A stretch of DNA of 64,000 bases from an uncultured Clostridia bacterium (GCA_947593925.1 CANQDU010000001.1:141188-205187); one strand, 5' to 3'; counted from the stretch's first letter, positions 14,463 to 58,349 are shown. Notes: a model not told the origin generated them from the letters alone. Made by a program: numbers and translations.

Positions 14463-14469
14463 TCGCGTT

Positions 14470-14514
14470 CGCGGGGAATAAGGAGCGGGCAAAGCCCGCT
14501 CCTTATTCCCCGCG
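14470..14514 (+). repeat. Stop-proximal long hairpin (first module of composite R3), 8 nt after the dacB-like stop
   Basis: The sequence is cgcggggaataaggagcgggc-aaa-gcccgctccttattccccgcg. It is homologous to 38739..38787, with a compensatory mid-stem. Confidence 0.75.
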
Positions 14515-14517
14515 AGA

Positions 14518-14600
14518 CCGTCGGACAGGGCGAAGCCCTGCCGACGGCCAGCGCCGTTCTTCGCTCCTCGCGGCTTTGCCGCTTCGAAGCGCGAACGGCG
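14518..14600 (+). repeat. Modules C and D of composite R3
   Basis: C (14518-14547, ccgtcggacagggcgaagccctgccgacgg) and D (14552-14600) parallel 1251-1280 and 1285-1334. Confidence 0.75.
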
Positions 14601-14778
14601 AGAGGTGTAAATTTCGCCGTTCGGTTCGTACAATGTTGGGACGTCGGCGCGAAGCGCCGAGGTCAGATGCGCCCGGTAGAAAGTTCCGGTGCGTAGCAAG
14701 TCGAAGGGCGCATTCACGCCGCCGCCGAAAATAATTTGAACTTATTTCGCCGCTAACGCGGCGAAACTCTGCGAGGCT
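14601..14778 (+). repeat. Module E, long form, copy 2
   Basis: It runs from gagaggtgtaaatttcgcc to atttcgccgctaacgcggcgaaactctgcgaggct and is homologous to the reverse complement of 25677..25853. Confidence 0.8.
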
Positions 14779-14843
14779 TTTGAAAAGCCCGAGGGAGCCG
14801 CTAAACGCGGCTCCCTCGGGTTTGCTTTATTTTGTGCGAATGT

Positions 14844-25676: not shown

Positions 25677-25853
25677 AGCCTCGCAGAGTTTCGCTGCTTC
25701 AGCGGCAAAATAAAGTTCGATCTGTTTTTTTCCGACGACAATGCGCCCGCCAACATATACCGTGCTTAACATTCTACCGGGCGCATCAGACCTCGGCGCT
25801 TCGCGCCGAGGTCCCAACATTGTACGAACCATAGGGCGAAATTTACACCTCTC
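25677..25853 (-). repeat. Module E, long form, copy 3 (inverted)
   Basis: Its reverse complement aligns with 14601..14778, including gagaggtgtaaat, gggacCtcggcgcgaagcgccgaggtc, gatgcgccc...gggcgcatt and the tail aaactctgcgaggct. Confidence 0.8.
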
Positions 25854-25886
25854 GCGTAGCGCGCGTCGAAGGCGGCGAAGCCGTTT

Positions 25887-26025
25887 CCGCGCCGGTTCGC
25901 GCGGTTAAAGTTGCTTGCCTATGGCAAGCAACTTTGCGCAGGCGGAATTCACTTCCGCCGAGCATTTCAATCAAAAGGGCTCCCACGCGGTCACTGACCG
26001 CGTGGGAATTGCGAAGCGGAGCGCC
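25887..26025 (-). repeat. Four-hairpin module F, copy 2
   Basis: It is homologous to 10943..11080 and 57975..58112. Stems are at 25887-25904, 25908-25934, ~25941-25959 and 25981-26007. Confidence 0.8.
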
Positions 26026-26026
26026 C

Positions 26027-26110
26027 GCCGCCGGCAGGACTTTGTCCTGTCCGGCGGCTTCGCGGAAAATTGAAGGGGGCAGACAAAGTCTGCCCCCTCG
26101 ATTTTCCGCG
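26027..26110 (-). repeat. Module C copy (26027-26058) plus stop-proximal nested hairpin (26061-26110), starting 6 nt after the oadB stop
   Basis: The nested hairpin is cgcggaaaat..agggggcagac-aaa-gtctgccccct..attttccgcg. The inner stem recurs at 58322-58349. Confidence 0.75.
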
Positions 26111-27749: not shown

Positions 27750-28247
27750 TTAGACACGCTTTATCGAATTGAAGAAGAGCTCGTCGGGCTCGCAGCCCAT
27801 CTCATCCGCGACGATCGCCATTATCATGGCGGCGCTCTTTTCGTCAACGTCCGTAAGCTCCGTACCGTCAACGATCCTTCCGCCTTCCGGCACGCGCTTG
27901 ATGGAGTTTATGCGGAGCTCCTCCGGCTCGCAGCCCATTTCGTCCGCCACGGTCGCGATAAGCATCGCGGCGGTCTTTGCGGGCATACGGAGCGCGGGAG
28001 CCGGCTTCTTCGCGGCGGGAGCCGCGGGTGCGGCGGCGGCCGGTGCGGGGGCCGGAGCCGCCGGAGCGGGCGCGGCCTTGGGAGCCGACGCCTTCTCGCT
28101 TATCGCGCCCATTATCTTGATGACTATCATCAGCGCGAACAGCGCGGCAAAGACTATCGCTATACCGAGCAGGGCGTAGCCGAGGCCGGTGCCGAGGCCG
28201 AGCTCTATGCCGGTCGTGCCGGCTTCATGAAAGAATTTACCCAGCAT
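27750..28247 (-). CDS. OadG-family small subunit with duplicated C-terminal motif
   Basis: An N-terminal TM helix (ALLGIAIVFAALFALMIVI) and an Ala/Pro linker are followed by two copies of A(M)xIAxVADEMGCEPxELxxNSIKRV. Confidence 0.6.
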   Translation of the reverse strand: MLGKFFHEAGTTGIELGLGTGLGYALLGIAIVFAALFALMIVIKIMGAISEKASAPKAAPAPAAPAPAPAAAAPAAPAAKKPAPALRMPAKTAAMLIATVADEMGCEPEELRINSIKRVPEGGRIVDGTELTDVDEKSAAMIMAIVADEMGCEPDELFFNSIKRV

Positions 28248-28259
28248 TTATCTCACCTC

Positions 28260-29639
28260 TTATATCTCGGTGATGGTGAACTTCGCGGTGTTGTCCTCGC
28301 GCTCCTTGCGCTTCTTGAGGAACTTCTCTGCCTGAGCCGGGAAGGCGATGTAGCTGAGAACGTCCTCCTCGCTCTTCGCGAGGTCGCCTATCTCCTTCTT
28401 CGCGTCCGGAATGCCGGGCTTGAGCGTGTCGGCATAGCGGCCGGTTATCGGCTTCTCGTCGCCGAGGATTTTCTTGACGACCTCCGGGTCCATCGGGCCG
28501 GGAGCGATGCCGTACTCGCCGCGGACGTAGGAGGTTATCTCCTTGGAGACGTTCTTGTAGCGCTCGCCCGCGAGGACGTTCGAAACAGCCTGAACGCCGA
28601 CCATCTGGCTCATCGGGGTGACGAGCGGCGGATAGCCGAGGTCCTTGCGGACGCGCGGAGTCTCCGCAAGAACTTCGTCGATGCGGTCCATGGCGTTCTG
28701 CGCCTTGAGCTGTGCGACGAGGTTGGAGAGCATGCCGCCGGGGATCTGATAGTTCAGCGCGTCGGTCTTGGTCTCCATGACGAACGGGTCGAGCAGGCCG
28801 CTCTGGAGATACTCGTTCTTAATCGGCTTGAAGTAGTCGTTTATCTCCTTGAGGCAGTCGTCCTTGAGGTCTATCTCATAGCCAAGCTGACGCAGGGCGT
28901 AGACCATGGACTCGGTCGCGGGCTGGCTCGTGCCGCCGGAGAGGCAGCTTATCGAGGTGTCGATGATGTCCGCGCCCGCCTCGACGGCCTTGACAAGCGT
29001 CATCGGGCCGAGGCCGGTGGTGGAATGGGTGTGCAGATCGACCGGCAGGTCGCCGACGGTCTCCTTGATGGCCTTAACGAGGTCGTATGCCTCCTTCGGC
29101 CCCATGATGCCCGCCATGTCCTTGATGCAGATGGAGTCCGCGCCCATCTCCTTCATCTGCTTTGTCATCTTGGCGTACGCCTCGAGGGTGTGCACCGGGG
29201 ATGTGGTGTAGCTGATGGCCACCTGTGCCTCGCCGCCGGCCTTGTGCGTCTCGTTGATGCAGAGCTCGACGTTGCGCAGGTCGTTGAGCGCGTCGAATAT
29301 GCGGATGATGTCGATACCGTTATCGACGGACTTGTGGACGAATGCCTTCACGACGTCGTCCGGATAGTGCTTGTAGCCGAGCAGGTTCTGTCCGCGCAGC
29401 AGCATCTGGAGCTTCGTGTGCTTGACGGCGGAACGGATCTTGCGGAGGCGCTCCCACGGGTCCTCGTCGAGGTAGCGAAGGCAGCTGTCAAACGTCGCGC
29501 CGCCCCAGCACTCGAGCGAATAGTAACCCGCCTTGTCCATCGTCTCGAGGATGCCTTTGAATTTTTCGTAGGGCATTCTCGTCGCCAGCAGAGACTGCTG
29601 AGCGTCACGAAGGACGGTTTCCGTGAATTGTACTTTCAT
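28260..29639 (-). CDS. oadA: Oxaloacetate decarboxylase alpha subunit / carboxyltransferase (5S-type, no fused biotin domain)
   Basis: TETVLRDAQQSL and the HMGL-like TIM barrel with HTHSTTG are present, along with a PYC_OADA C-terminal region. Confidence 0.9.
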   Translation of the reverse strand: MKVQFTETVLRDAQQSLLATRMPYEKFKGILETMDKAGYYSLECWGGATFDSCLRYLDEDPWERLRKIRSAVKHTKLQMLLRGQNLLGYKHYPDDVVKAFVHKSVDNGIDIIRIFDALNDLRNVELCINETHKAGGEAQVAISYTTSPVHTLEAYAKMTKQMKEMGADSICIKDMAGIMGPKEAYDLVKAIKETVGDLPVDLHTHSTTGLGPMTLVKAVEAGADIIDTSISCLSGGTSQPATESMVYALRQLGYEIDLKDDCLKEINDYFKPIKNEYLQSGLLDPFVMETKTDALNYQIPGGMLSNLVAQLKAQNAMDRIDEVLAETPRVRKDLGYPPLVTPMSQMVGVQAVSNVLAGERYKNVSKEITSYVRGEYGIAPGPMDPEVVKKILGDEKPITGRYADTLKPGIPDAKKEIGDLAKSEEDVLSYIAFPAQAEKFLKKRKEREDNTAKFTITEI

Positions 29640-29927
29640 AACAAACCTCCTGTATGAGAATTTCGGTCGGCGCGAACGGCAGTCCGACCGTCATTCCCGC
29701 CCATTTTGAACTCTCTGGAATAATCTTACCGCAGTCGCCCGCCAAAAGCAAGCCAAAAAACGGGATTTTGGCAAAATTTTTTCAAAGTGATTGACTTCCG
29801 CCCCTGTTTGAGATACGCTTAGAGCAGATTGCACAAGAAGCCTTTCAAACGCGAAGATCCTCTTCTCGGGCGCCGGGGCTCTGTAAAAATTGAAAGAAAC
29901 ATATTCGTTATTTGCAGGAGGTGCGAA

Positions 29928-31454
29928 ATGGCGTATTTTCTCGGAATAGACGTTGGAACGAGCGGCCTCAAGAGCGTCCTCACGGACGAGCGCGGGCGGG
30001 TCGCGGCGGCTAAGACCGTCGAATACCCCCTCTACCAGCCGAAAAACGGCTGGGCGGAGCAGGACCCGGAGGACTGGGTGTCGGCCGCGGCGCAGTCGAT
30101 ACGCGGCGTGCTGGAGGTCTCCGGCGTGCCGGCGGAGGACGTGGTCTCGGTAGGTCTCACCGGGCAGATGCACGGGCTTGTCCTGCTTGACGGGCATGAC
30201 CGCGTGCTCCGCCGCGCCATTCTCTGGTGCGACGGACGCAGCGCCGCCGAGTGCGGCGAGATAACCGAGCGCGCCGGCGGCAGGAAGCGCCTCATAGAGC
30301 TCTGCGCGAACCCCGCCATCGCGGGATTTACCGCGTCGAAGGCGCTCTGGGTAAGGAACAACGAGCCTGAAATATGGTCTCGGGCGGTGCGGATGCTCCT
30401 CCCGAAGGACTATCTCCGCCTCCGTCTCTGCGGCGTGTACGCCTCCGACGTGAGCGACGCATCCGGCATGCAGCTCTTTGACGTCGCGCACAGGCGGTGG
30501 TCGGACGAGCTCTGCCGCGCGCTCGACATACCGATGTCGATGCTCCCCGAGGTCTACGAGAGCCCGGAGGTCTGCGGCAAAATAACCGCCGAGGCGGCGG
30601 CGCTCACCGGCCTCAAAGTGGGGACGCCGGTAGTCGCGGGCGCGGGCGACAACGCCGCCTCCGCTGTCGGGATGGGCGTCGTGCACGACGGAGACGCATT
30701 CGTGTCGATAGGCAGCTCGGGCGTCGTCTTCGCGCACACGAGCGAGCCGCGCTTCGACGCGGACGGCCGTGCGCACACCTTCTGCTGCGCCGTACCGGGA
30801 AAGTGGCACATGATGGGCGTCACCCAGGGCGCGGGACTCTCGCTCAAGTGGTTCCGGGACACGCTCGCGGGCGACCTGCGCGCCCGCGCGGAGCGCGAGG
30901 GTCGGAACGTCTACGCCGTAATAGACGAGGAGGCGGAGCGGAGCCCGATAGGCTCGAACCGCCTCGTGTTCCTCCCCTACCTCATGGGCGAGCGGACGCC
31001 GCACCTAGACCCCTCGGCGCGCGGGGTGTTCTTTGGCCTCAGCGCCTCGCACACGCTCGGCGACCTCGCGCGGGCGGTGATGGAGGGAGTCACCTTCTCG
31101 CTCCGCGACTGCCTCGAGGTGCTCGGCGACGCGGGCGTCCGCCCCACCTCGCTCATAGCCTGCGGAGGCGGCGGCACGAGCGCGCTCTGGCGCGACATGC
31201 TCTGCTCCGCGCTTGAGACGCCGATAGACCTCTCGCCCTCCGCGGCGGAGGGCGCGGCGTTCGGCGCGGCTGTCCTCGCCGCGGCGGAGAGCTTCGGCTC
31301 GGTCGAAAGCGCCTGCGCCGCTATGACCTCGCGCGAGCGCGCGTGCGCGCCCGACGCACAAAAGTCCGCGGCGTATCGTCCTGTTTACGGTATTTACCGC
31401 TCCCTCTACCCCGTTCTCAGGGAAAATTATACAAATCTTGAGTCCATCGGCTGA
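29928..31454 (+). CDS. xylB: Xylulokinase (FGGY family)
   Basis: FLGIDVGTSGLKSV and GAGDNAASAVG are present. An AGGAGG RBS precedes the ATG at 29928. Confidence 0.85.
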   Translation: MAYFLGIDVGTSGLKSVLTDERGRVAAAKTVEYPLYQPKNGWAEQDPEDWVSAAAQSIRGVLEVSGVPAEDVVSVGLTGQMHGLVLLDGHDRVLRRAILWCDGRSAAECGEITERAGGRKRLIELCANPAIAGFTASKALWVRNNEPEIWSRAVRMLLPKDYLRLRLCGVYASDVSDASGMQLFDVAHRRWSDELCRALDIPMSMLPEVYESPEVCGKITAEAAALTGLKVGTPVVAGAGDNAASAVGMGVVHDGDAFVSIGSSGVVFAHTSEPRFDADGRAHTFCCAVPGKWHMMGVTQGAGLSLKWFRDTLAGDLRARAEREGRNVYAVIDEEAERSPIGSNRLVFLPYLMGERTPHLDPSARGVFFGLSASHTLGDLARAVMEGVTFSLRDCLEVLGDAGVRPTSLIACGGGGTSALWRDMLCSALETPIDLSPSAAEGAAFGAAVLAAAESFGSVESACAAMTSRERACAPDAQKSAAYRPVYGIYRSLYPVLRENYTNLESIG

Positions 31455-31471
31455 TTTTTCCGGCTTCGGTA

Positions 31472-31500
31472 TTGAAAAAAACGCCGCTCCACAATATAAT
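31472..31500 (+). promoter_or_regulatory. Candidate sigma-A promoter of the transketolase genes
   Basis: TTGAAA (31472-77) and TATAAT (31495-500) are separated by 17 nt. Confidence 0.5.
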
Positions 31501-31563
31501 GGTATAGCGTAAAGACACAGGCTTTGACCACAGTCATGTGTTTTGACCGGGAGGCTGATATAT

Positions 31564-32418
31564 ATGGATCCTGTCGAAAAGCGGCGGCTCGAGGCGACGG
31601 CCTGCCGCATCCGCATCGGAATAATCGAAGGCGTGTACAGCGCGAAGAGCGGTCACCCGGGGGGGAGTCTCTCGGCGGCGGACCTGCTCGCGTACCTCTA
31701 TTTCAAGGAGATGAACGTCCGCCCGGAGGAGCCGGACTGGCCGGACCGCGACCGTTTCGTTCTCTCGAAGGGTCACGCCGCGCCCGCGCTCTACGCGGCG
31801 CTCGCCGAGCGCGGATACTTCCCCCCGGAGGAGCTGAAGACGCTCCGCCACATCGGCAGTCATCTTCAGGGCCACCCGAACATGCGCCTCACGCCCGGCG
31901 TGGATATGTCCACCGGCAGTCTCGGACAGGGCGTCTCGGCGGCGGTCGGCATGGCCATAGCCGGGAAGCTCGGAAAGAAGGACTACCGCGTCTACGCTCT
32001 CTGCGGAGACGGCGAGAGTCAGGAGGGCGAGGTCTGGGAGGCGCTGATGAGCGCCGCGCACTACTCGCTTGATAACTTCGCCGTTGCGATAGACTGCAAC
32101 GGTCTCCAGATAGACGGGCGCGTGTCGGAGGTCATGAGCCTCGACCCGCTCGCGGAGAAGCTCGAGGCGTTCGGCTTCTTCACTCAGACGGTGGACGGTC
32201 ACGACTTTGACGCGCTCGAGAGCGCATACGGCCGCGCGAGGCTCGAGAAGGGACGTCCGAGCGCGATAATTCTCAAGACCGTGAAGGGCAAGGGCGTCAG
32301 CTTCATGGAGGACAAGGCCGGCTGGCACGGCAAGGGTCCCAACGCCGAGGAGTACGGGCTCGCGATGGGCGAGCTTCGGACAAGGCTCGGCGAACTCGTC
32401 GGAGGTGAGGAGAAATGA
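31564..32418 (+). CDS. Transketolase, N-terminal subunit
   Basis: SGHPGGSLS and LSKGHAAPALY are the TPP-binding half. A GGGAGG RBS lies 9 nt upstream of the ATG at 31564. Confidence 0.9.
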   Translation: MDPVEKRRLEATACRIRIGIIEGVYSAKSGHPGGSLSAADLLAYLYFKEMNVRPEEPDWPDRDRFVLSKGHAAPALYAALAERGYFPPEELKTLRHIGSHLQGHPNMRLTPGVDMSTGSLGQGVSAAVGMAIAGKLGKKDYRVYALCGDGESQEGEVWEALMSAAHYSLDNFAVAIDCNGLQIDGRVSEVMSLDPLAEKLEAFGFFTQTVDGHDFDALESAYGRARLEKGRPSAIILKTVKGKGVSFMEDKAGWHGKGPNAEEYGLAMGELRTRLGELVGGEEK

Positions 32419-33356
32419 GCGAAATAAAAGCCGCCACCCGCGACGGGTTCGGACGTGAGCTCGCGGCTCTCGGCCGCGAGCACCCCGACATAGTCGCGCT
32501 GAACGCCGACCTCTCCGAGACGACGCGCACCGGCTACTTCCAGAAGGAGTTCCCGGATCGGTTCTTCAACTGCGGCATAGCCGAGGCGAACATGATGGGC
32601 ATAGCGGCGGGGCTCGCGTCCTGCGGATACGTCCCGTTCGTATCGAGCTTTGCGATGTTTGCGGCGGGGCGCGCGTTCGAGCAGGTCAGGAACTCGATAG
32701 GCTACCCGCACCTCAACGTCAAGATAGGCGCGAGCCACGCCGGAATAAGCGTCGGCGAGGACGGCGCGAGCCACCAGTGCTGTGAGGACATCGCGCTCAT
32801 GCGCACCATTCCCGGCATGACGATACTCTGCCCCGCGGACGAGCCGGAGGCCCGCGCCGCGACCCGCGCCGCGTACCACCGCGAAGGGCCGGTCTATCTG
32901 CGGGTGAGCCGGTTCGCGACGCCGGTGATAAGCGACCACTCGGCAAAGTTTGAGATAGGCAAGGGCGTCCTGCTCCGTCCGGGCAGCGACGTCGCGATAA
33001 TCGCCTGCGGGATAATGGTGCCGGAGGCGCTGGATGCGGCGAAGGCGCTCGCGGCGGAAGGCATCTCCGCCCGCGTGATAAACATGCACACGGTAAAGCC
33101 GCTCGACCGAGACATAGTCGCCGCCGCCGCGCGCGAGTGCCGTGCGATAGTCACGGCGGAGGAGCACAGCGTCATCGGCGGCCTCGGCGAGGCGGTCTGC
33201 TCGTTCGTCTCCGAGAACTGCCCCGTGCCGGTGAGGCGCGTCGGCGTGAACGACGAGTTCGGAATGTCCGGCCCCGCCGCCGACCTGCTGAAGCACTTCG
33301 GTCTCTCTGCGGAGAATATAGCCGCCGCCGCGCGGAGCCTCGTAAAAAACAAATAA
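32415..33356 (+). CDS. Transketolase, C-terminal subunit
   Basis: It is the pyrimidine-binding and C-terminal half (FNCGIAEANMMG, SHAGISVGEDGASHQ). It overlaps the N-terminal subunit gene by 4 nt. Confidence 0.9.
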   Translation: MSEIKAATRDGFGRELAALGREHPDIVALNADLSETTRTGYFQKEFPDRFFNCGIAEANMMGIAAGLASCGYVPFVSSFAMFAAGRAFEQVRNSIGYPHLNVKIGASHAGISVGEDGASHQCCEDIALMRTIPGMTILCPADEPEARAATRAAYHREGPVYLRVSRFATPVISDHSAKFEIGKGVLLRPGSDVAIIACGIMVPEALDAAKALAAEGISARVINMHTVKPLDRDIVAAAARECRAIVTAEEHSVIGGLGEAVCSFVSENCPVPVRRVGVNDEFGMSGPAADLLKHFGLSAENIAAAARSLVKNK

Positions 33357-33365
33357 AGCTACAGC

Positions 33366-33398
33366 AAAACAGCGGAGCCAAGCGGCTCCGCTGTTTTT
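33366..33398. terminator. Bidirectional terminator
   Basis: A 10-bp stem (cagcggagcc/ggctccgctg) is flanked by AAAA and TTTTT. Confidence 0.65.
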
Positions 33399-33428
33399 AT
33401 GCAGTTGCGCACCCACTCGGGCGCACGG

Positions 33429-34415
33429 TCAGTATGTGAATTGCAGATTCACCGTGAGGTGGAACCTCTCTCCCGTTCCGTCGTCGTTCTCGCAGAACTC
33501 CAGCGTGAGGCGGTACGGGTACTCGGTCTCCATGGTCTTGCCGATCTCGCGCTCAAATGTCACCTGACAAAAATACTTATTCCCGCTTGTCCAAACATCG
33601 CTGACGTACCGGCTTCCGGCCGTTTCCTCCGTCCTGAACACGCGGTCGCTCACGTCCTGCCACTCGCCGTCCTTCTGCATCTCGAGGGTGGTCTTTGCGC
33701 GGTCGAGGCAGATACCCGTGCCGTCGTTGCTTCGCAGGACGAAGTCCATCGCGGCAACATTGCTAGGATCGTACAACAGGCAGGTCGAGATCACGTCAAA
33801 CCGCTTCTCCGTCGCCTCGGGAACGGTAAGCGTAAACGTGATGTGGTACAACTCGTCGCCGGTGGTGTAATGATAATACTCCATGGTCTCCGACTCCCGG
33901 AAGTACAGCGTACAGCGGTAAGTTCCCGGGTCGCTTACGGGTATGCCGAATAAAGTCCACACACTTTCCCCCGCTCCCATGCCCGCATAAGGCGGCTCGC
34001 CGAACATCAGCAGGCTCGTAAAGTCGACCGCAAGCTCGTCGTTGTACTCGACCCACTCGCCGTCCTCAAGGCGCTCTACATGGCTCTTGGGATAGCTGTC
34101 CTCATCACCAACCGCTCTTCCGTTCTTGTAGAGCGCCGATGTGAAGGCTATATCCTTCGACGCCGCGAGTCTCACCCCCGCCTCGTCGTACATCGCATAT
34201 TGCATCCGGTCCCACACGATGCTCTCCGCCCGGAGGATGTCGACGTCCCCCTCGCAGTCCGTTATCTGCGTTTCGGGACGGCTGAAGGTGTACACGTCGC
34301 GCACCATTCCGAACTCGGGGTTCGGGTCACGCGCCCGAAGCACGAGCGCCTCCGCCACAGCAAGCGCGGCAAATACCAATATCGTCGCCGCCGCAAAAAG
34401 TATCTTCTTTTTCAT
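33429..34415 (-). CDS. Secreted protein of unknown function (paralog of 1489..2586)
   Basis: A signal peptide (MKKKILFAAATILVFAALAV) is present. The motifs LE..DGEW..V, PGTYRCTLYF and the C-terminal YRLTLEFCENDDGTGERFHLTVNLQF are shared with the paralog. Confidence 0.6.
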   Translation of the reverse strand: MKKKILFAAATILVFAALAVAEALVLRARDPNPEFGMVRDVYTFSRPETQITDCEGDVDILRAESIVWDRMQYAMYDEAGVRLAASKDIAFTSALYKNGRAVGDEDSYPKSHVERLEDGEWVEYNDELAVDFTSLLMFGEPPYAGMGAGESVWTLFGIPVSDPGTYRCTLYFRESETMEYYHYTTGDELYHITFTLTVPEATEKRFDVISTCLLYDPSNVAAMDFVLRSNDGTGICLDRAKTTLEMQKDGEWQDVSDRVFRTEETAGSRYVSDVWTSGNKYFCQVTFEREIGKTMETEYPYRLTLEFCENDDGTGERFHLTVNLQFTY

Positions 34416-34525
34416 TCCGATTACCTCCTTCTACCGGCGTTTCCGGTGTTCTGCCTGTATATGTCCGAAGGAGGCGTTTTGAGGACAAAAATTTTTCAAA
34501 ATTCTAAAAAATTTTTTCGCGGCGG

Positions 34526-34553
34526 AGCGGCGGGCGCAGATGCGCCCGCCGCT
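34526..34553 (-). terminator. Possible spo0A terminator hairpin
   Basis: The stem is agcggcgggcgca/tgcgcccgccgct. On the minus strand the T-run lies a few nt away. Confidence 0.4.
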
Positions 34554-34617
34554 GTCCGTCGCAGATGCCCGCGCGGCGCTACGCACGCGCCGCGCTCACG
34601 CGGTCTTCCGCGAGTCT

Positions 34618-35358
34618 CTACCTCACCGCTCCGCGCTGTAGGCGGAGCCGGTCGGCGATTATCGCTATGAACTCGGAGTTTGTCGGCTTGCCCTTGACGC
34701 TCGAAACGGTGTAGCCGAAGTATTTCTGCAATACCTCGAGGTCGCCTCTGTCCCACGCGACTTCGATCGCGTGGCGAATAGCGCGCTCGACGCGGCTCGG
34801 CGTCGTGCCGAAGCGGCTAGCGACCGCCGGGTAAAGCTGCTTTGTGACGGCGTTGATGTACTCCGGCGTCTCCGCCGAGAGAATTATCGCCTCGCGTATG
34901 TAGCCGTAGCCCTTGATGTGCGCGGGAACGCCTATCTCGTGCATTATCTCAGTGACGCGGCTCTCGAGGCTCGCGCTCTTTGCCGCCGCGCTCCGCCCAA
35001 GCACCTGTTCCGCCGCCGCCTGCATGGTCGAGGCGCGGAAGGGCTTCGCCACGAAGTACTCCGCGCCGGCGTCGTAGGCGAGCAGCGCCGTGTCCTCGCG
35101 GACGAAGTTCCCCACGGCTATCATCCTCGGCGCGTCCTCACGTCCGCGCAGCTCGCGCATGAGGCAGAGCCCGTCCAATTCGGGAAGTATCATCTCGGTC
35201 ACGAGCAGGCGCGGGTTCTTCTCCTCGACGAGGTTCAGCGCCTCCTCTCCGCTCGCGGCGCAGCCCACCACGTCGATACCCGCGCTTTTCAGCGCCTCGG
35301 TTATCGTCTCGCGCGAGGTCTCGCTCGCATCCGCCACTATCGCAGTTCTTCCGTTCAT
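34618..35358 (-). CDS. spo0A: Stage 0 sporulation protein A (Spo0A) with atypical receiver domain
   Basis: The C-terminal domain is diagnostic ([47 protein letters not shown]). The receiver reads VADAS and [13 protein letters not shown] instead of VADDN and LVLDIIMPHLDG. Confidence 0.85.
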
Positions 35359-35388
35359 ACAAAAACCTCCATTCTGATTTCTCTGATT

Positions 35389-35395
35389 TTCGACA
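35389..35395 (-). promoter_or_regulatory. Consensus 0A-box (TGTCGAA) upstream of spo0A
   Basis: The plus strand reads TTCGACA, which is TGTCGAA on the spo0A strand, 31-37 nt upstream of the ATG. Confidence 0.35.
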
Positions 35396-35683
35396 CTTTT
35401 CTAGCGTATATTTGCCGTATCCTTTGTCTTTTGCGCCGGAACGTGCCGTAAATTGCTAATCAAACGATACCACAGTTTTTGCCGGTGCGCAAGATATTTT
35501 TATAAAATTCTCCTGATTTTTTAACGACGATTTTTCTCATTACGTCTAAAAATTATGTAAACTCTGAACTTTTTCTCGACATTTCTTGTTTTCTCGACCG
35601 GTTTCCCTCCCGCGCGGCGGAGGCGGCAAATGCCTCCCGAAGCGTCCTCCGCGAGAAAAACTTGACTTCCGTGCGGCAAACTC

Positions 35684-38738: not shown

Positions 38739-38787
38739 CTCACGGGGAACAGTTCGCGGGTAAAGCCCGCGAACTGTTCCCCGTGAG
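38739..38787 (+). repeat. Stop-proximal long hairpin (first module of composite R6), 3 nt after the jag stop
   Basis: The sequence is ctcacggggaacagttcgcggg-taaa-gcccgcgaactgttccccgtgag. Confidence 0.75.
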
Positions 38788-53945: not shown

Positions 53946-54017
53946 ACATTCCTCCTGCTTTCTCGGGTCTCTGCGGCGGAGCGCGTCGGCTGCCGGCGGC
54001 GTCCGCCCGTGCGGACG

Positions 54018-54680
54018 CTACTCCGTCCGCTCCCACGGACTCTCCGCCATCTCCGCGCCGAGCGCGAACGCCTTCTCCTTCTCCACGGGGAAGACGGTCT
54101 CGCGGCGGAGCTTCTTTGCCTCCGGGTCGAACATCGTCCAGTCGTAACGGCTGTAGTCGCTTACCTGGAGAGTGTTGCCCGAGATCATCACCTTCGTCTC
54201 GCCGACAAAGCTGTCAAGCGAGCCCTTGTACCTCGCTATCATATCGGCGTAGCCGCCCTTCGCGTAACTCTCCTCGGGCGCGTTGCTCGTCATGATAAAG
54301 AGCACCGGTATCCTGTGCCCGTTACAGTTCGGGCGCTCTCTGTTGTATGTGAGCGAGCGGAATATCAGCCGCTCGAAGAGCGCACGGAAGCCCGCGGTCA
54401 CGTCGCCGAGGTAGTTCGGCGTACCGACGATGAGACCGTCCGCGTGGCTTATCTTCTCGAGCACCGGCTGAAGGCCGTCCCGGCAGACGCACTCGCCCAT
54501 ATGCTCCGGCAGCTTACACCCGAAGCAGGACACGCATCCGGTGAACTTCTCGAGCCTGTACAGGTCGATGACCTCGACCTCCGCACCCGCGCTCTCCGCG
54601 CCGCGCGCGGCCTCGCGGACGAGTATGGACGTGTTCCAGCCGGTGCGCGGGCTCGCGTTTACGGCAACGATGTGTTTCAT
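54018..54680 (-). CDS. Flavodoxin-like fold NAD(P)H-dependent FMN reductase / iron-sulfur flavoprotein-like
   Basis: The N-terminus reads MKHIVAVNASPRTGWNTS, and a Cys cluster CVSCFGC is present. The start is at 54680 with a GGAGG RBS. Confidence 0.7.
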   Translation of the reverse strand: MKHIVAVNASPRTGWNTSILVREAARGAESAGAEVEVIDLYRLEKFTGCVSCFGCKLPEHMGECVCRDGLQPVLEKISHADGLIVGTPNYLGDVTAGFRALFERLIFRSLTYNRERPNCNGHRIPVLFIMTSNAPEESYAKGGYADMIARYKGSLDSFVGETKVMISGNTLQVSDYSRYDWTMFDPEAKKLRRETVFPVEKEKAFALGAEMAESPWERTE

Positions 54681-54884
54681 GCAAAGCACCTCCGAGTATA
54701 TTGTTGAAGGTCGGTTCGTTCGTGACAGCGCGGCCGGCTCCGAGTTTATCGGTTGCATCGCTCTATTTTGCGTCGCATATATGCCTCGAAGCCCGGCAAA
54801 CGCCGCTGCGGCGCGCATACATATTCCACCAATATACCGAATTATATAACGAGCGCAAGGATGTGTCAAGACCGCGCCATATCA

Positions 54885-55765
54885 GCAGGCGGAGCCCGCA
54901 ACCCTCCAGCGGGGAAGCCCCCGCGAGCATTCGCGGGGCGAGCCCCGCGTCCCTAGGTAGAGCGGAGCTCTACCGACACATTGCGGGGGCACTGCCCCCG
55001 CACCCCCGGCGGGGCTGTGCCGCCCCGCACCCCTGCATTACTTTTTGCTCGCGCAAAAAGTAATCAAAAAGCGCGCTTAAGGGAGAGGGCTTTGCCCTCT
55101 CCCTTAAAAATCCCTCTCCCAATACAGACACACAACCGCAACCCACATAACAGGACAAACTCCGTATCAAACAAATCCGTCATCCGACCGGGTGAGTTTC
55201 TGGGGATACAATATCCGACTTTCCCACTATATCGACGACATCGAACAGTTCCTGCGTAGTAGAAATAAAAGTCCGGTCCTACGCTCACACTATAAGCGTA
55301 ATGCAGATGCTATCCCGAGAAAACGAAACTTTCGGTTCTAGTGGAAAGTATGAGCGTAGACGCTTGTACTAAGCTGCGGACGGGCGTCCCGCGTAGCAGA
55401 GATTTTCCGGTTAAGGAAAGAGGGGTACAAAGGGGAGAAAACCGTTGGTTTTCTCCCCTTTGTGTGCTTTTTGGTTACTTTTTGCACAAGCAAAAAGTAA
55501 CGCAGGGCGCGGGGGCGCCGCCCCCGCAAAGTGCCGGTGAGGCTCTGCCTCACTCAGGGACGCGGGGCCCGCCCCGCGAATGCTCGCGGGGCTTCCCCGC
55601 TGGATGGGTGTGGGCTTTGCCCACTTAGGGACGCTGGGCCGCCCCCGCGAATGCTCGCGGGGCTTCCCCGCTCGATGGGAGTGGGCTTTGCCCGCTTTGG
55701 TGCGGGGCTTTCCCGCTATTCGGGCGCGGGTGCTTGCCCCGCAAATCTGCGGGCTCCGCCCGCAG
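54885..55765. repeat. ~880-bp non-coding element: long imperfect inverted arms built of GC-rich hairpin modules around a lower-GC core
   Basis: The left arm (54885-~55125) is the reverse complement of parts of the right arm (~55414-55765). For example, 54906-54954 matches 55556-55603 and 55627-55675 in inverted orientation. The ends are gcaggcggagcccgc and gcgggctccgcccgc. Confidence 0.75.
55556..55697 (+). repeat. Tandem duplication of a 71-nt module inside the right arm
   Basis: 55556-55626 and 55627-55697 are about 90 percent identical by eye. Confidence 0.75.
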
Positions 55766-55768
55766 ATA

Positions 55769-55797
55769 TTGACAATCCTTCGCCGATGCTCTACAAT
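55769..55797 (+). promoter_or_regulatory. Candidate sigma-A promoter of the MATE gene
   Basis: TTGACA (55769-74) and TACAAT (55792-97) are separated by 17 nt. Confidence 0.55.
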
Positions 55798-55864
55798 AGT
55801 GAGGCGTAAGCGTTTTCCCGCGCGGCGGGACGGACGAAATATCGGCGCGAAAAGGGACATTGTG

Positions 55865-57280
55865 ATGGACAGAACGATAAATTCGGCGTTTCCGTGGAGA
55901 GACTTTTTGAAGCGGCTCGCCGTGATAGCTATACCGGTGGCGCTCCAGAACCTGCTGACGACTACCGCGAGCATGGTGGACACGATGATGGTCGCCCCGC
56001 TCGGCGAGACGACGGTCGGCGCGCTCGGACTGTGCGCGCAGTTCTCCTCGCTGATGTTCTCCTGCTACTGGGGCTTTGTCGGCGGAGGTAGCCTTTTCTT
56101 CTCTCAGTACTGGGGCTCGAAGGAGGACGACGGCATCGAGCGCTCCTACGGCATGACGTGGGTGTGCATGATGACGGTCGCCGTCGTTTTCGGATGCCTT
56201 GCGATGTTTGCGCCGGGCGCGGTCATGCGCCTCTATACCGACAAGACGGCGATACAGCAGATAGGCGTGCAGTACCTTCAGATAGTCGGCGCGGCGTACA
56301 TAATGCAGGTGTTCTCGATGGCGATGAGCAGTCTGCTCCGCTCCACCGAGCGGGTGCGGATACCGCTCGTCGCATCTATCGCGTCGGTCGCGACGAATAT
56401 CCTCCTCAACTGGGTGTTCATCTACGGAAAGCTCGGGCTTCCCGCCATGGGTATACGCGGCGCCGCGCTCGCGACTACATGCGCCGCCGCCGTGAACGTG
56501 CTTGCAATATATCTTATGGCGCGCGGCGTGAGGTACCCGTACCTCTTTCACATTCGCGGACACTTCCGCTGGACGCGCGCGCACCTGAAAAACTACCTCA
56601 TAAAGTGCTTCCCGATAATCTGCAACGAGCTCCTCATCGGCGTCGGGAACATGCTGATAAACATAACGCTGGGACGTCAGCCCGAGCCGGTGATAGCCGC
56701 GATAGCGGTGTTCCGAACGCTCGAGGGACTGATAATCGGCTTCTTTGCGGGATTTTCGAGCGCCGCTTCGATACTCGTCGGCACCTGCGTCGGCGCTGGC
56801 GAGCTGAAGACGGCGTATGAGCGCGCAAAGCGGCTCGTGTACCTGTGCAGCGGGATAATATTCTGCGCCGGGCTCGTGCTCCTGCTTATCCACAAGCCGA
56901 TACTCACCGGGATGGGACTTTCCGGAGAGTCGTACACGGCGGGCTTCCGCTTCCTTCTCATATACGTCGTGGTGTCGCTCATAAGGATGGGAAACTGGAT
57001 ACAGAACGACACCTACCGCGCCTCCGGCGACTCGGTCTACGGCACGACGCTCGAGATAGTATTCATGTATGTGCTCGTGCTCCCCTGCGTATTGCTTTCG
57101 GGGTTCGTGTTCAAGCTCCCGTACTGGCTCATATTCATCTTCTGTTACATAGACGAACCGATACGCTACCTGCTCATGCAGATACACCTCTACTCCGGCA
57201 AGTGGATAAAGCCGGTAACAGACGTCGGCCGCGCCGCGCTCCCGGCCTTCCGCGAGCAGATGCGGAGAAAAAAGGCATGA
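55865..57280 (+). CDS. MATE family efflux transporter
   Basis: The N-terminus reads LAVIAIPVALQNLLTTTASMVDTMMV, and 12 TM helices are present. The start is at the ATG at 55865. Confidence 0.85.
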   Translation: MDRTINSAFPWRDFLKRLAVIAIPVALQNLLTTTASMVDTMMVAPLGETTVGALGLCAQFSSLMFSCYWGFVGGGSLFFSQYWGSKEDDGIERSYGMTWVCMMTVAVVFGCLAMFAPGAVMRLYTDKTAIQQIGVQYLQIVGAAYIMQVFSMAMSSLLRSTERVRIPLVASIASVATNILLNWVFIYGKLGLPAMGIRGAALATTCAAAVNVLAIYLMARGVRYPYLFHIRGHFRWTRAHLKNYLIKCFPIICNELLIGVGNMLINITLGRQPEPVIAAIAVFRTLEGLIIGFFAGFSSAASILVGTCVGAGELKTAYERAKRLVYLCSGIIFCAGLVLLLIHKPILTGMGLSGESYTAGFRFLLIYVVVSLIRMGNWIQNDTYRASGDSVYGTTLEIVFMYVLVLPCVLLSGFVFKLPYWLIFIFCYIDEPIRYLLMQIHLYSGKWIKPVTDVGRAALPAFREQMRRKKA

Positions 57281-57887: not shown

Positions 57888-57941
57888 TCGCTGCAAATCG
57901 CGGGCGCGGATTTCATCCGCGCCCTTACCAATTTGCAGCGA
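57888..57941 (+). repeat. Module A, copy 3, starting 4 nt after the carD-like stop
   Basis: It is identical to 1157-1210 over 54 nt. Confidence 0.9.
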
Positions 57942-57942
57942 A

Positions 57943-57974
57943 GCCGCCGGACAAGGCGTAGCCTTGCCGGCGGC
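57943..57974 (+). repeat. Module C copy
   Basis: The sequence is gccgccggacaaggcgtagccttgccggcggc. Confidence 0.7.
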
Positions 57975-58112
57975 AGCGCTCCGCTACGCATTCCCACGCG
58001 GTCGGCGACCGCGTGGGAGCCCTTCCGATTAAAATGCTCGCCCCGAATGAATCGGGGCTCCGCGAAGTTGCTTGCCTGTGGCAAGCAACTTCAACCGCGC
58101 GAACCGGCGCGG
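57975..58112 (+). repeat. Four-hairpin module F, copy 3
   Basis: It is colinear with the reverse complements of 10943..11080 and 25887..26025. Confidence 0.8.
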
Positions 58113-58149
58113 AGTGCGGCTCCGCCGTCTTCGACGCACGCTCCGCACA

Positions 58150-58302
58150 GTACACAGTCGGGACGTCGGCGCGAAGCGCCGACGTCTGATGCGCCCGGAA
58201 GAAGGTCGGATGAGGTATTGGTTCGAGGGCGCATTGTACACGCCGTCGGAAAAAATGAATTTAACTCTATTTCGCGCCCTTGGCGCGAAACTCTGCGAGG
58301 CT
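58150..58302 (+). repeat. Module E, copy 5
   Basis: gggacgtcggcgcgaagcgccgacgtc, gatgcgccc..gggcgcatt and atttcgcgcccttggcgcgaaactctgcgaggct are present. Confidence 0.8.
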
Positions 58303-58321
58303 TAGAAGCGGTTATAAAATT

Positions 58322-58349
58322 AAGGGGGCAGACTTTCGTCTGCCCCCTT
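58322..58349. terminator. Hairpin closing composite R8 (between the convergent carD-like gene and proC)
   Basis: The sequence is aagggggcagac-tttc-gtctgccccctt. Confidence 0.5.

Follow-up and report, generated by a model that had tools for sequence, protein, structure and literature searches.

A MITE-like foldback repeat with modular arms probably fills intergenic spacers in a rabbit-gut Clostridia lineage

Bacterial miniature inverted-repeat transposable elements (MITEs), such as Correia/NEMIS of Neisseria, RUP of Streptococcus pneumoniae and Nezha of cyanobacteria, are non-coding sequences shorter than about 1 kb that occur in many dispersed intergenic copies, carry terminal inverted repeats of 10–40 bp, can fold into long hairpins, are present or absent between relatives and cause breaks in short-read assemblies. 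Repetitive extragenic palindromes (REPs), bacterial interspersed mosaic elements (BIMEs) and REP doublets forming hairpins (REPINs) are mosaics of GC-rich palindromes at gene 3′ ends without target-site duplication, the REPs being mostly scattered singly or in pairs. Invertons are segments bounded by short exact inverted repeats, and eukaryotic foldback (FB) elements, for example Drosophila FB, have very long arms of short tandem units, varying in number between copies, around a short non-coding middle, and are prone to inversion. Here we analyze an 891-bp segment, positions 54879–55769 of a 64,000-nucleotide stretch of DNA from an uncultured Clostridia bacterium (GCA_947593925.1, CANQDU010000001.1:141188-205187; the whole stretch is called the window below), in which two arms built of hairpin modules are mirrored around a non-coding core of about 320 nt. 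This segment is probably one copy of a lineage-specific, non-autonomous, MITE-like foldback repeat that fills intergenic spacers. A full-text search of the literature found no description of such an element, and long modular foldback repeats seem to have been described only rarely in bacteria.

The element lies in a 1.18-kb spacer between a flavodoxin-like gene (54018–54680, minus strand) and a MATE gene (55865–57280, plus strand). An earlier reading of the window from its letters only, referred to here as the sequence-only reading, had noticed in this gap long inverted arms, repeated 50-nt units, matching hairpins and matching outermost ends, and a repeat finder recovered all of them. The outermost bases (ATATCAGC...GCAGATAT) belong to a 22-nt inverted pair of 91% identity (54879–54900/55748–55769), inside which are nested a 94-nt pair (54912–55005/55505–55598) and a 66-nt pair (55021–55086/55452–55517), both of 80% identity. 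The 50-nt unit at 54906–54954 returns in inverted orientation at 55556–55603 and 55627–55675, both inverted units being contained in a 71-nt tandem duplication of the right arm (55536–55606/55607–55677). The modules of this copy run in the order A B C D E F G, core, G′ F′ D′ C′ B′ X B″ X .. A′, and this mirrored order makes the element a genuine foldback, more than a succession of hairpins each complementary to itself. Folded as a single strand, the region 54870–55780 reaches −535.7 kcal/mol, as against −345.7 ± 7.1 kcal/mol for 20 dinucleotide shuffles (z = −26.7).

The left outer arm (54885–55036) is composed of the GC-rich modules A (54885–54899), B (54906–54954), C (54956–54974), D (54982–55002) and E (55009–55028), and these module types recur in the arms of all other copies described below. 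It is followed by the inner-arm hairpin F (55037–55064; ATTACTTTTTGC-TCGC-GCAAAAAGTAAT) and by hairpin G (55077–55107), which with its T-run occupies 55066–55108 on the minus strand. Beyond the core, hairpin G′ (55427–55463) with its T-run occupies 55425–55475 on the plus strand, and hairpin F′ (55474–55501; GTTACTTTTTGC-ACAA-GCAAAAAGTAAC) leads into the right outer arm (55505–55769), which holds D′ (55509–55527), C′ (55537–55553), B′ (55556–55603), X (55610–55624), B″ (55627–55675) and X′ (55681–55695) and, in its distal part, two further hairpins (55702–55716 and 55724–55742) and the terminal hairpin A′ (55745–55767). F and F′ are the hairpins with the motif ttactttttgc, and G and G′, which flank the core, are of the GGGAGAGGG type. 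The core (55108–55426), of lower G+C content (about 45%), can be divided into a left half (55108–55217) and a right half (55218–55426).

That the segment is a repeat was hinted at by three contigs from the same strain (L001, L002 and L003, 100% identical), all of which stop inside the arms; no same-strain contig spanning the element was returned. In a relative with a 97% identical MATE protein (L004), the MATE side borders on G, F and the left portion of the core, in reversed orientation, and a 23-mer common to this contig and the window (TACTACGCAGGAACTGTTCGATG, window 55261..55239) was used as the probe in a scan of one genome per species. It gave 34 exact matches, exclusively in two rabbit-gut metagenome-assembled genomes (MAGs) named 'uncultured Clostridia bacterium', Lapin-022__bin13 and Lapin-004__bin9, where they fall on at least 30 contig regions. 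The copies in these MAGs align to the window copy through core and arms over about 600–750 nt at about 84–91% identity, starting at window 54884, 55009 or 55042 and extending to 55613 or 55763, and a profile of the F-to-F′ region detected, in fetched loci totalling 246 kb, 36 copies, full or partial. Distinct copies number roughly at least 18 in one MAG and at least 12 in the other, fewer than the exact matches because some of these are two halves of one copy split between contigs; many copies lie at contig ends. Elsewhere, BLASTN of the whole element in distant mode found no match among PLSDB plasmids and GenBank phages, a 36-mer from hairpin F′ and a degenerate 30-mer from the core gave 0 matches in JGI metagenomes, and element-specific patterns gave 0 matches in IMG/VR viral contigs, where a general F-hairpin pattern matched one unrelated AT-rich phage. 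As far as the available data reach, the family does not extend beyond this lineage of rabbit-gut Clostridia.

All complete copies carry inverted arms and share a common plan, with an outer array of GC-rich hairpins, F, G, a core of near-constant length (about 320 nt), then G′, F′ and the mirrored array. The arms contain one to three superunits in tandem, either D-C-B (about 117 nt) or X-B (71 nt), and are tipped by a 15-nt hairpin, GYGGGC-NNN-GCCCRC, with the loop RRA in the left arm and TYY in the right. Copies are about 670 to 1,125 nt long in total, and arm length varies by duplication or loss of whole superunits. In the 310 kb inspected, modules B, C, D and E were found only beside a core, so that arms and core belong together as a unit that differs from the other hairpin composites in this genome; the sequence-only reading had already set the module repertoire apart from that of the composites in 3′ untranslated regions, correctly, since the arm modules are absent from the rest of the window. 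Hairpins F, G, G′ and F′ and the right half of the core are almost invariant across copies: F hardly varies in the family and, taken together with G, is 96–99% identical between orthologs, the stem of G is invariant in 30 copies and F′ is invariant in nearly all of the 29 aligned. The right half of the core includes the 23-mer used for the scan (55239–55261) and a minus-strand −10-like hexamer, TATAGT (55294..55289), and the left half occurs among copies in two or three sequence variants and with an 11-nt indel, as seen in the alignments. Two truncated copies (L018 3780–4160 and L019 860–1245) consist of the right half of the core and the right arm only and begin about 50 nt past the stop codon of a gene for a 325-aa lipoprotein-like protein, an orthologous position in both MAGs.

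The position of the copies relative to neighboring genes is biased. Among the 20 copies with both neighboring genes resolved, 11 are located between convergent, 6 between tandem and 3 between divergent genes. Where the 3′ end of a gene faces the element, the terminal hairpin usually begins 0–10 nt past the stop codon, which leaves no native terminator, and where a 5′ end faces it, the element halts just before a promoter-like sequence. The window copy has such a sequence on either side, both being host features: the promoter-like site of the flavodoxin-like gene (TTGACA-17-TATAAT, 54869..54841, minus strand) agrees with the consensus at 12/12 positions and is situated 10 nt outside the element, and that of the MATE gene (TTGACA-17-TACAAT, 55769–55797, plus strand), pointed out by the sequence-only reading, agrees at 11/12 positions and abuts the right end. 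The only terminator-like sites that a scan located in the element are the two hairpins bordering the core, both facing outward (55425–55465 plus T-run on the plus strand, 55108–55076 plus T-run on the minus strand).

Gain or loss of the element is documented at one site. Window positions 33344–33421 form a spacer of 78 nt that separates convergent genes and contains a bidirectional terminator of the ordinary kind (33366–33397), and the orthologous spacer in Lapin-022__bin13 is filled by a 789-nt copy (L017 2032–2820) whose flanks match window 28176–33343 and 33422–35452 at 94–96%. Both site states therefore exist, in a single case that is compatible with gain as well as with loss. By eye, the gene facing the filled site apparently has a slightly different C-terminus and stop codon (window 33300–33345 compared with L017 2821–2870), a difference possibly due to remodelling of the gene end by the element or by loss of it. 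More distant relatives, with a MATE protein about 80% identical, were dropped as a source of an empty site at the flavoprotein/MATE locus, as they have other neighbors and short upstream spacers. One contig from a relative with an 80% identical MATE protein (L006 1–970) carries upstream of the MATE gene an AT-rich, foreign-looking segment in which the contig ends; judged by eye, this segment may contain a fragment of the C-terminus of a tyrosine recombinase (integrase).

Inversion of one copy and exchange of sequence between copies are seen as well. At the locus of the window copy, a contig of Lapin-022__bin13 (L015) has the inner part of about 800 bp (approximately window 54900–55698) inverted between the same flavoprotein and MATE flanks, and a separate assembly, L004, 99.5% identical to L015, has the same inversion junction; in both, the outermost hairpins and the two promoters are unmoved beside the inverted core and inner arms. 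The window orientation is present at this locus in L040 and L024, from the other MAG, and in six further orthologous pairs between the two MAGs the orientation is kept. The two orientations are known from comparison between related lineages only, and with one inversion as against six conserved pairs, inversion looks like an occasional arm-mediated event. At another locus (L027 850–2511 and L028 6812–6835), the element adjoins the orthologous flanking gene in one MAG, and the other MAG has an extra 1.6 kb and the core in the opposite orientation, L028 ending inside the element; the difference may be due to a larger rearrangement anchored at the element. As to exchange, two copies from different loci of one MAG (L011 1–545 and L015 5688–6233) are identical over about 260 nt of the right half of the core and 93.6% identical overall, a pattern that fits recombination or gene conversion between paralogous copies. 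In L022, L034 and L036 the right-hand F hairpin and the adjoining spacer are of the left-arm type (GCGCGAGC loop, GCGCGC spacer), which suggests arm-to-arm conversion within the element.

Other explanations have to be weighed against these observations. The sequence-only reading had held that the segment would reduce to a locus-specific palindromic spacer if it had no other copy, no polymorphism among strains and no transcript; other copies and polymorphism both exist. Such a spacer without relatives would agree with the window itself, in which a sequence search and the F-to-F′ profile returned no second copy, but the idea is refuted by the other loci of the two related genomes, where the core 23-mer has 34 exact matches and the profile 36, and is left with practically no probability. 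The same reading had offered as a further option an invertible or cruciform-forming regulatory region directly upstream of the MATE promoter. Its 'invertible' is weakly borne out: among close relatives the inner part of the element, with inverted repeats on its two sides, occurs at this locus in either orientation, but orientation is kept in 6 of 7 orthologous pairs. A programmed, phase-variable switch controlling the MATE or the flavoprotein gene is very improbable, and the regulatory part of the proposal is not supported, on several grounds. The consensus promoters of both genes are outside the inverted segment and do not change in the inverted relative, where that of the flavodoxin-like gene keeps its place; the MATE upstream region (55770–55864) is 98–99% identical in L015 and L040. 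Within the segment, a standard scan detected no promoter, and the outward terminator-like hairpins close it on both sides. No recombinase is annotated among the called neighbors, the domains of which are Flavodoxin_2, Mem_trans, HisKA/HATPase, Response_reg, MFS, MatE and CarD. Moreover, at least 30 unrelated loci, for the most part spacers of convergent genes, carry the same element, and its arms of 200–350 bp at about 80% identity are unlike the repeats of invertons.

A more serious competitor, still rather unlikely, is that the host maintains the element as a small-RNA or terminator/insulator module in many copies, with spread being secondary; either the core would be transcribed, with a candidate start provided by the minus-strand TATAGT and an end at G or G′, or the whole element would be the 3′-end or terminator region of its neighbors. 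This would account for the T-run hairpins at both ends of the core, for the retention of the −10-like hexamer in 25/25 aligned copies, for the way in which elements abut stop codons and replace the native terminator spacer, for the truncated right-half copies kept in both MAGs and for orthologous cores and F/G hairpins being conserved above four-fold degenerate sites (see below). Compensatory changes, too, were detected by RNAalifold in the right half on the plus strand, confined to two pairs of hairpin G′ (AU to GC in 6 copies, AU to UA in 2). Outside G′, however, they amount to 0–2 pairs, and the left half of the core, folded on the minus strand, has none. The consensus fold energy of the right half is within about one standard deviation of column shuffles on both strands, no better than these controls. 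The −35 region belonging to the hexamer is weak and variable, the left half of the core tolerates the 11-nt indel and alternative sequences, and G-U and A-C mismatches in the arm stems are balanced (11 vs 12), without strand bias. Nor did known RNA families offer support: Rfam 15 gave no match at the gathering threshold over the whole window and only chance hairpin matches (E-values 0.64 and 0.74) in E-value mode over 54000–56500, and ARAGORN found no tRNA or tmRNA in the region. With respect to coding potential, no open reading frame is conserved across 25 copies, and six-frame segments of the core had no significant match in Pfam. Improbable in our view is a giant REPIN- or BIME-like element, the GC-rich modules of which would be REP-type sequences mobilized as single-stranded hairpin DNA by a REP-associated tyrosine transposase (RAYT) or an IS200/IS605-type Y1 (HUH) transposase encoded elsewhere. 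The arms are indeed mosaics of 15–50-nt GC-rich imperfect palindromes variable in number and order, the copies prefer gene 3′ ends and convergent spacers, the whole element is able to snap back into one hairpin, and the absence of a target-site duplication and of a well-defined tip would be as in Y1 transposition. Against this, B, C, D and E were never met as single units or as simple doublets without the 320-nt core beside them, the unit is about ten times the length of a REPIN, and no RAYT or TnpA gene was seen in the roughly 310 kb inspected, in which proteins were not systematically searched.

We return to the MITE-like foldback repeat as the favored reading. Of the phrase 'MITE or foldback element' used by the sequence-only reading, the dispersed copies, the long inverted arms and the filled/empty polymorphism speak in favor, and several observations weigh against it. 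Target-site duplications, which that reading had proposed to look for, were not found: the ends of about 15 copies show no consistent direct repeat, the ends being fuzzy enough for a very short duplication to be possible, and a 'GAAAAT' pair flanking L013 is probably due to chance. In the filled/empty pair the whole 78-nt spacer is replaced, with no duplication, which is not what a clean insertion would leave. No autonomous parent was found: the 310 kb available yielded no transposase-bearing element with the same arms, and a longer version between F/G hairpins was not seen in the fetched loci. Paralogous copies, on average 88.7% identical, have diverged about as far as orthologous ones (87–94%), no pair of whole copies reaches 97%, and there is no sign in these comparisons of a very recent burst of copying. 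Conservation is highest inside the element, in F, G, G′, F′ and the right half of the core, and not at the tips, which is unlike a MITE. Finally, orthologous copies are 88–93% identical in the core and 95–99% in the F/G hairpins, compared with 82–83% at four-fold degenerate sites of the flanking genes, and other spacers range from 69% to 98%; the high values could reflect a function or constraint at the level of the host or conversion toward the family consensus, as opposed to a purely selfish element. Given the lack of a target-site duplication and of a parent, and the internal conservation, we do not file the element as a classical MITE, and there is room for a REPIN-like Y1 route or a host-maintained module.

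If the element is mobile, we infer that it would spread as a non-autonomous unit moved in trans by an enzyme encoded elsewhere. Its extreme self-complementarity could provide a single-stranded snap-back intermediate, or the repeated hairpin units could be recognized as protein-binding arrays. Persistence may be favored by transcriptional self-containment, as the two terminator-like hairpins face out of the core, and most copies, whose start is at most about 10 nt from the stop codon of a neighboring gene and which fill the whole spacer, would replace the native terminator region. At the window copy the divergent promoters on the two sides are intact, and a specific effect on the flavoprotein or the MATE gene is improbable; the likely local effects would be that the promoters are pushed about 0.9 kb apart and that the locus is prone to cruciform formation and recombination. 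A bolder and tentative possibility, which we rate as doubtful, is a novel class of foldback element whose functional ends are the long superunit arrays together with the invariant F and G. It would move as a snap-back single strand or by way of a hairpin-binding enzyme into spacers behind stop codons and replace the native terminator with its own pair, and its core would be kept by selection as a protein-binding platform or as an unstructured RNA with a role at the host level, the selection being suggested by the conservation of orthologous cores above four-fold sites.

The window contains other hairpin arrays as well. Multi-hairpin composites at 1171–1452, 14469–14820, 25789–26098 and 57902–58349 draw on another set of hairpins (among them GGGCGCGGAT..ATCCGCGCCC, CCCACGCGGTC..GACCGCGTGGG and AGTTGCTTGCC..GGCAAGCAACT), each of which is present 2–3 times in the window in varied order and orientation. 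None of these composites is arranged as a foldback around a core, and in one of them, at 57916, the same-strain contig L003 breaks off. At 14469–14515 and 38739–38787 there are two perfect hairpins of great length, with stems of 22 bp, that follow one design (..GGGGAA....GCGGGC-AAA-GCCCGC....TTCCCC..), and their tips resemble the terminal X hairpin of the element.

For the locus upstream of the MATE gene the main message is a negative one, a dedicated regulatory switch being unlikely. As a family, the repeats offer a clear module grammar, variable arms, an internal terminator-like pair and documented gain or loss and inversion between close relatives; they explain breaks in short-read assemblies of this rabbit-gut Clostridia lineage and mark hotspots of inversion and rearrangement. 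If it is true that the elements take over the terminator function, a selfish repeat would have become part of ordinary gene 3′ ends.

Compared with described systems, the element shares with invertons a segment that is flanked by inverted repeats and occurs in both orientations, but it differs in having no promoter in the segment, flanking genes with promoters of their own, long imperfect repeats, many unrelated loci and no invertase annotated nearby. With bacterial MITEs it has in common the non-coding nature, the size below about 1 kb, the many dispersed intergenic copies, the terminal inverted repeats, the long-hairpin fold, the presence or absence between relatives and the assembly breaks. 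Its arms, in contrast to the short terminal repeats of MITEs, are 200–350 bp long, modular and variable in length, and it is further distinguished by the missing target-site duplication, the internal position of the best-conserved parts and the lack of a known parent insertion sequence. The REP, BIME and REPIN elements of Proteobacteria likewise form arrays of GC-rich imperfect palindromes at gene 3′ ends without target-site duplication and have the hairpin doublet as a unit, whereas the modules described here, from a Clostridia host, are tied to a unique conserved core, never stand alone and belong to a unit about tenfold longer. BOX elements of S. pneumoniae are modular too (boxA, a variable number of boxB, boxC), with partly complementary ends, non-coding and multi-copy, but differ in size, sequence and module grammar and are without a long unique core or an internal terminator pair. 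From the FB elements of eukaryotes our element is separated by the domain of life and has no sequence relation to them, and the analogy is thus one of form: very long arms made of tandem units in copy-variable number, a short non-coding middle and a liability to inversion.

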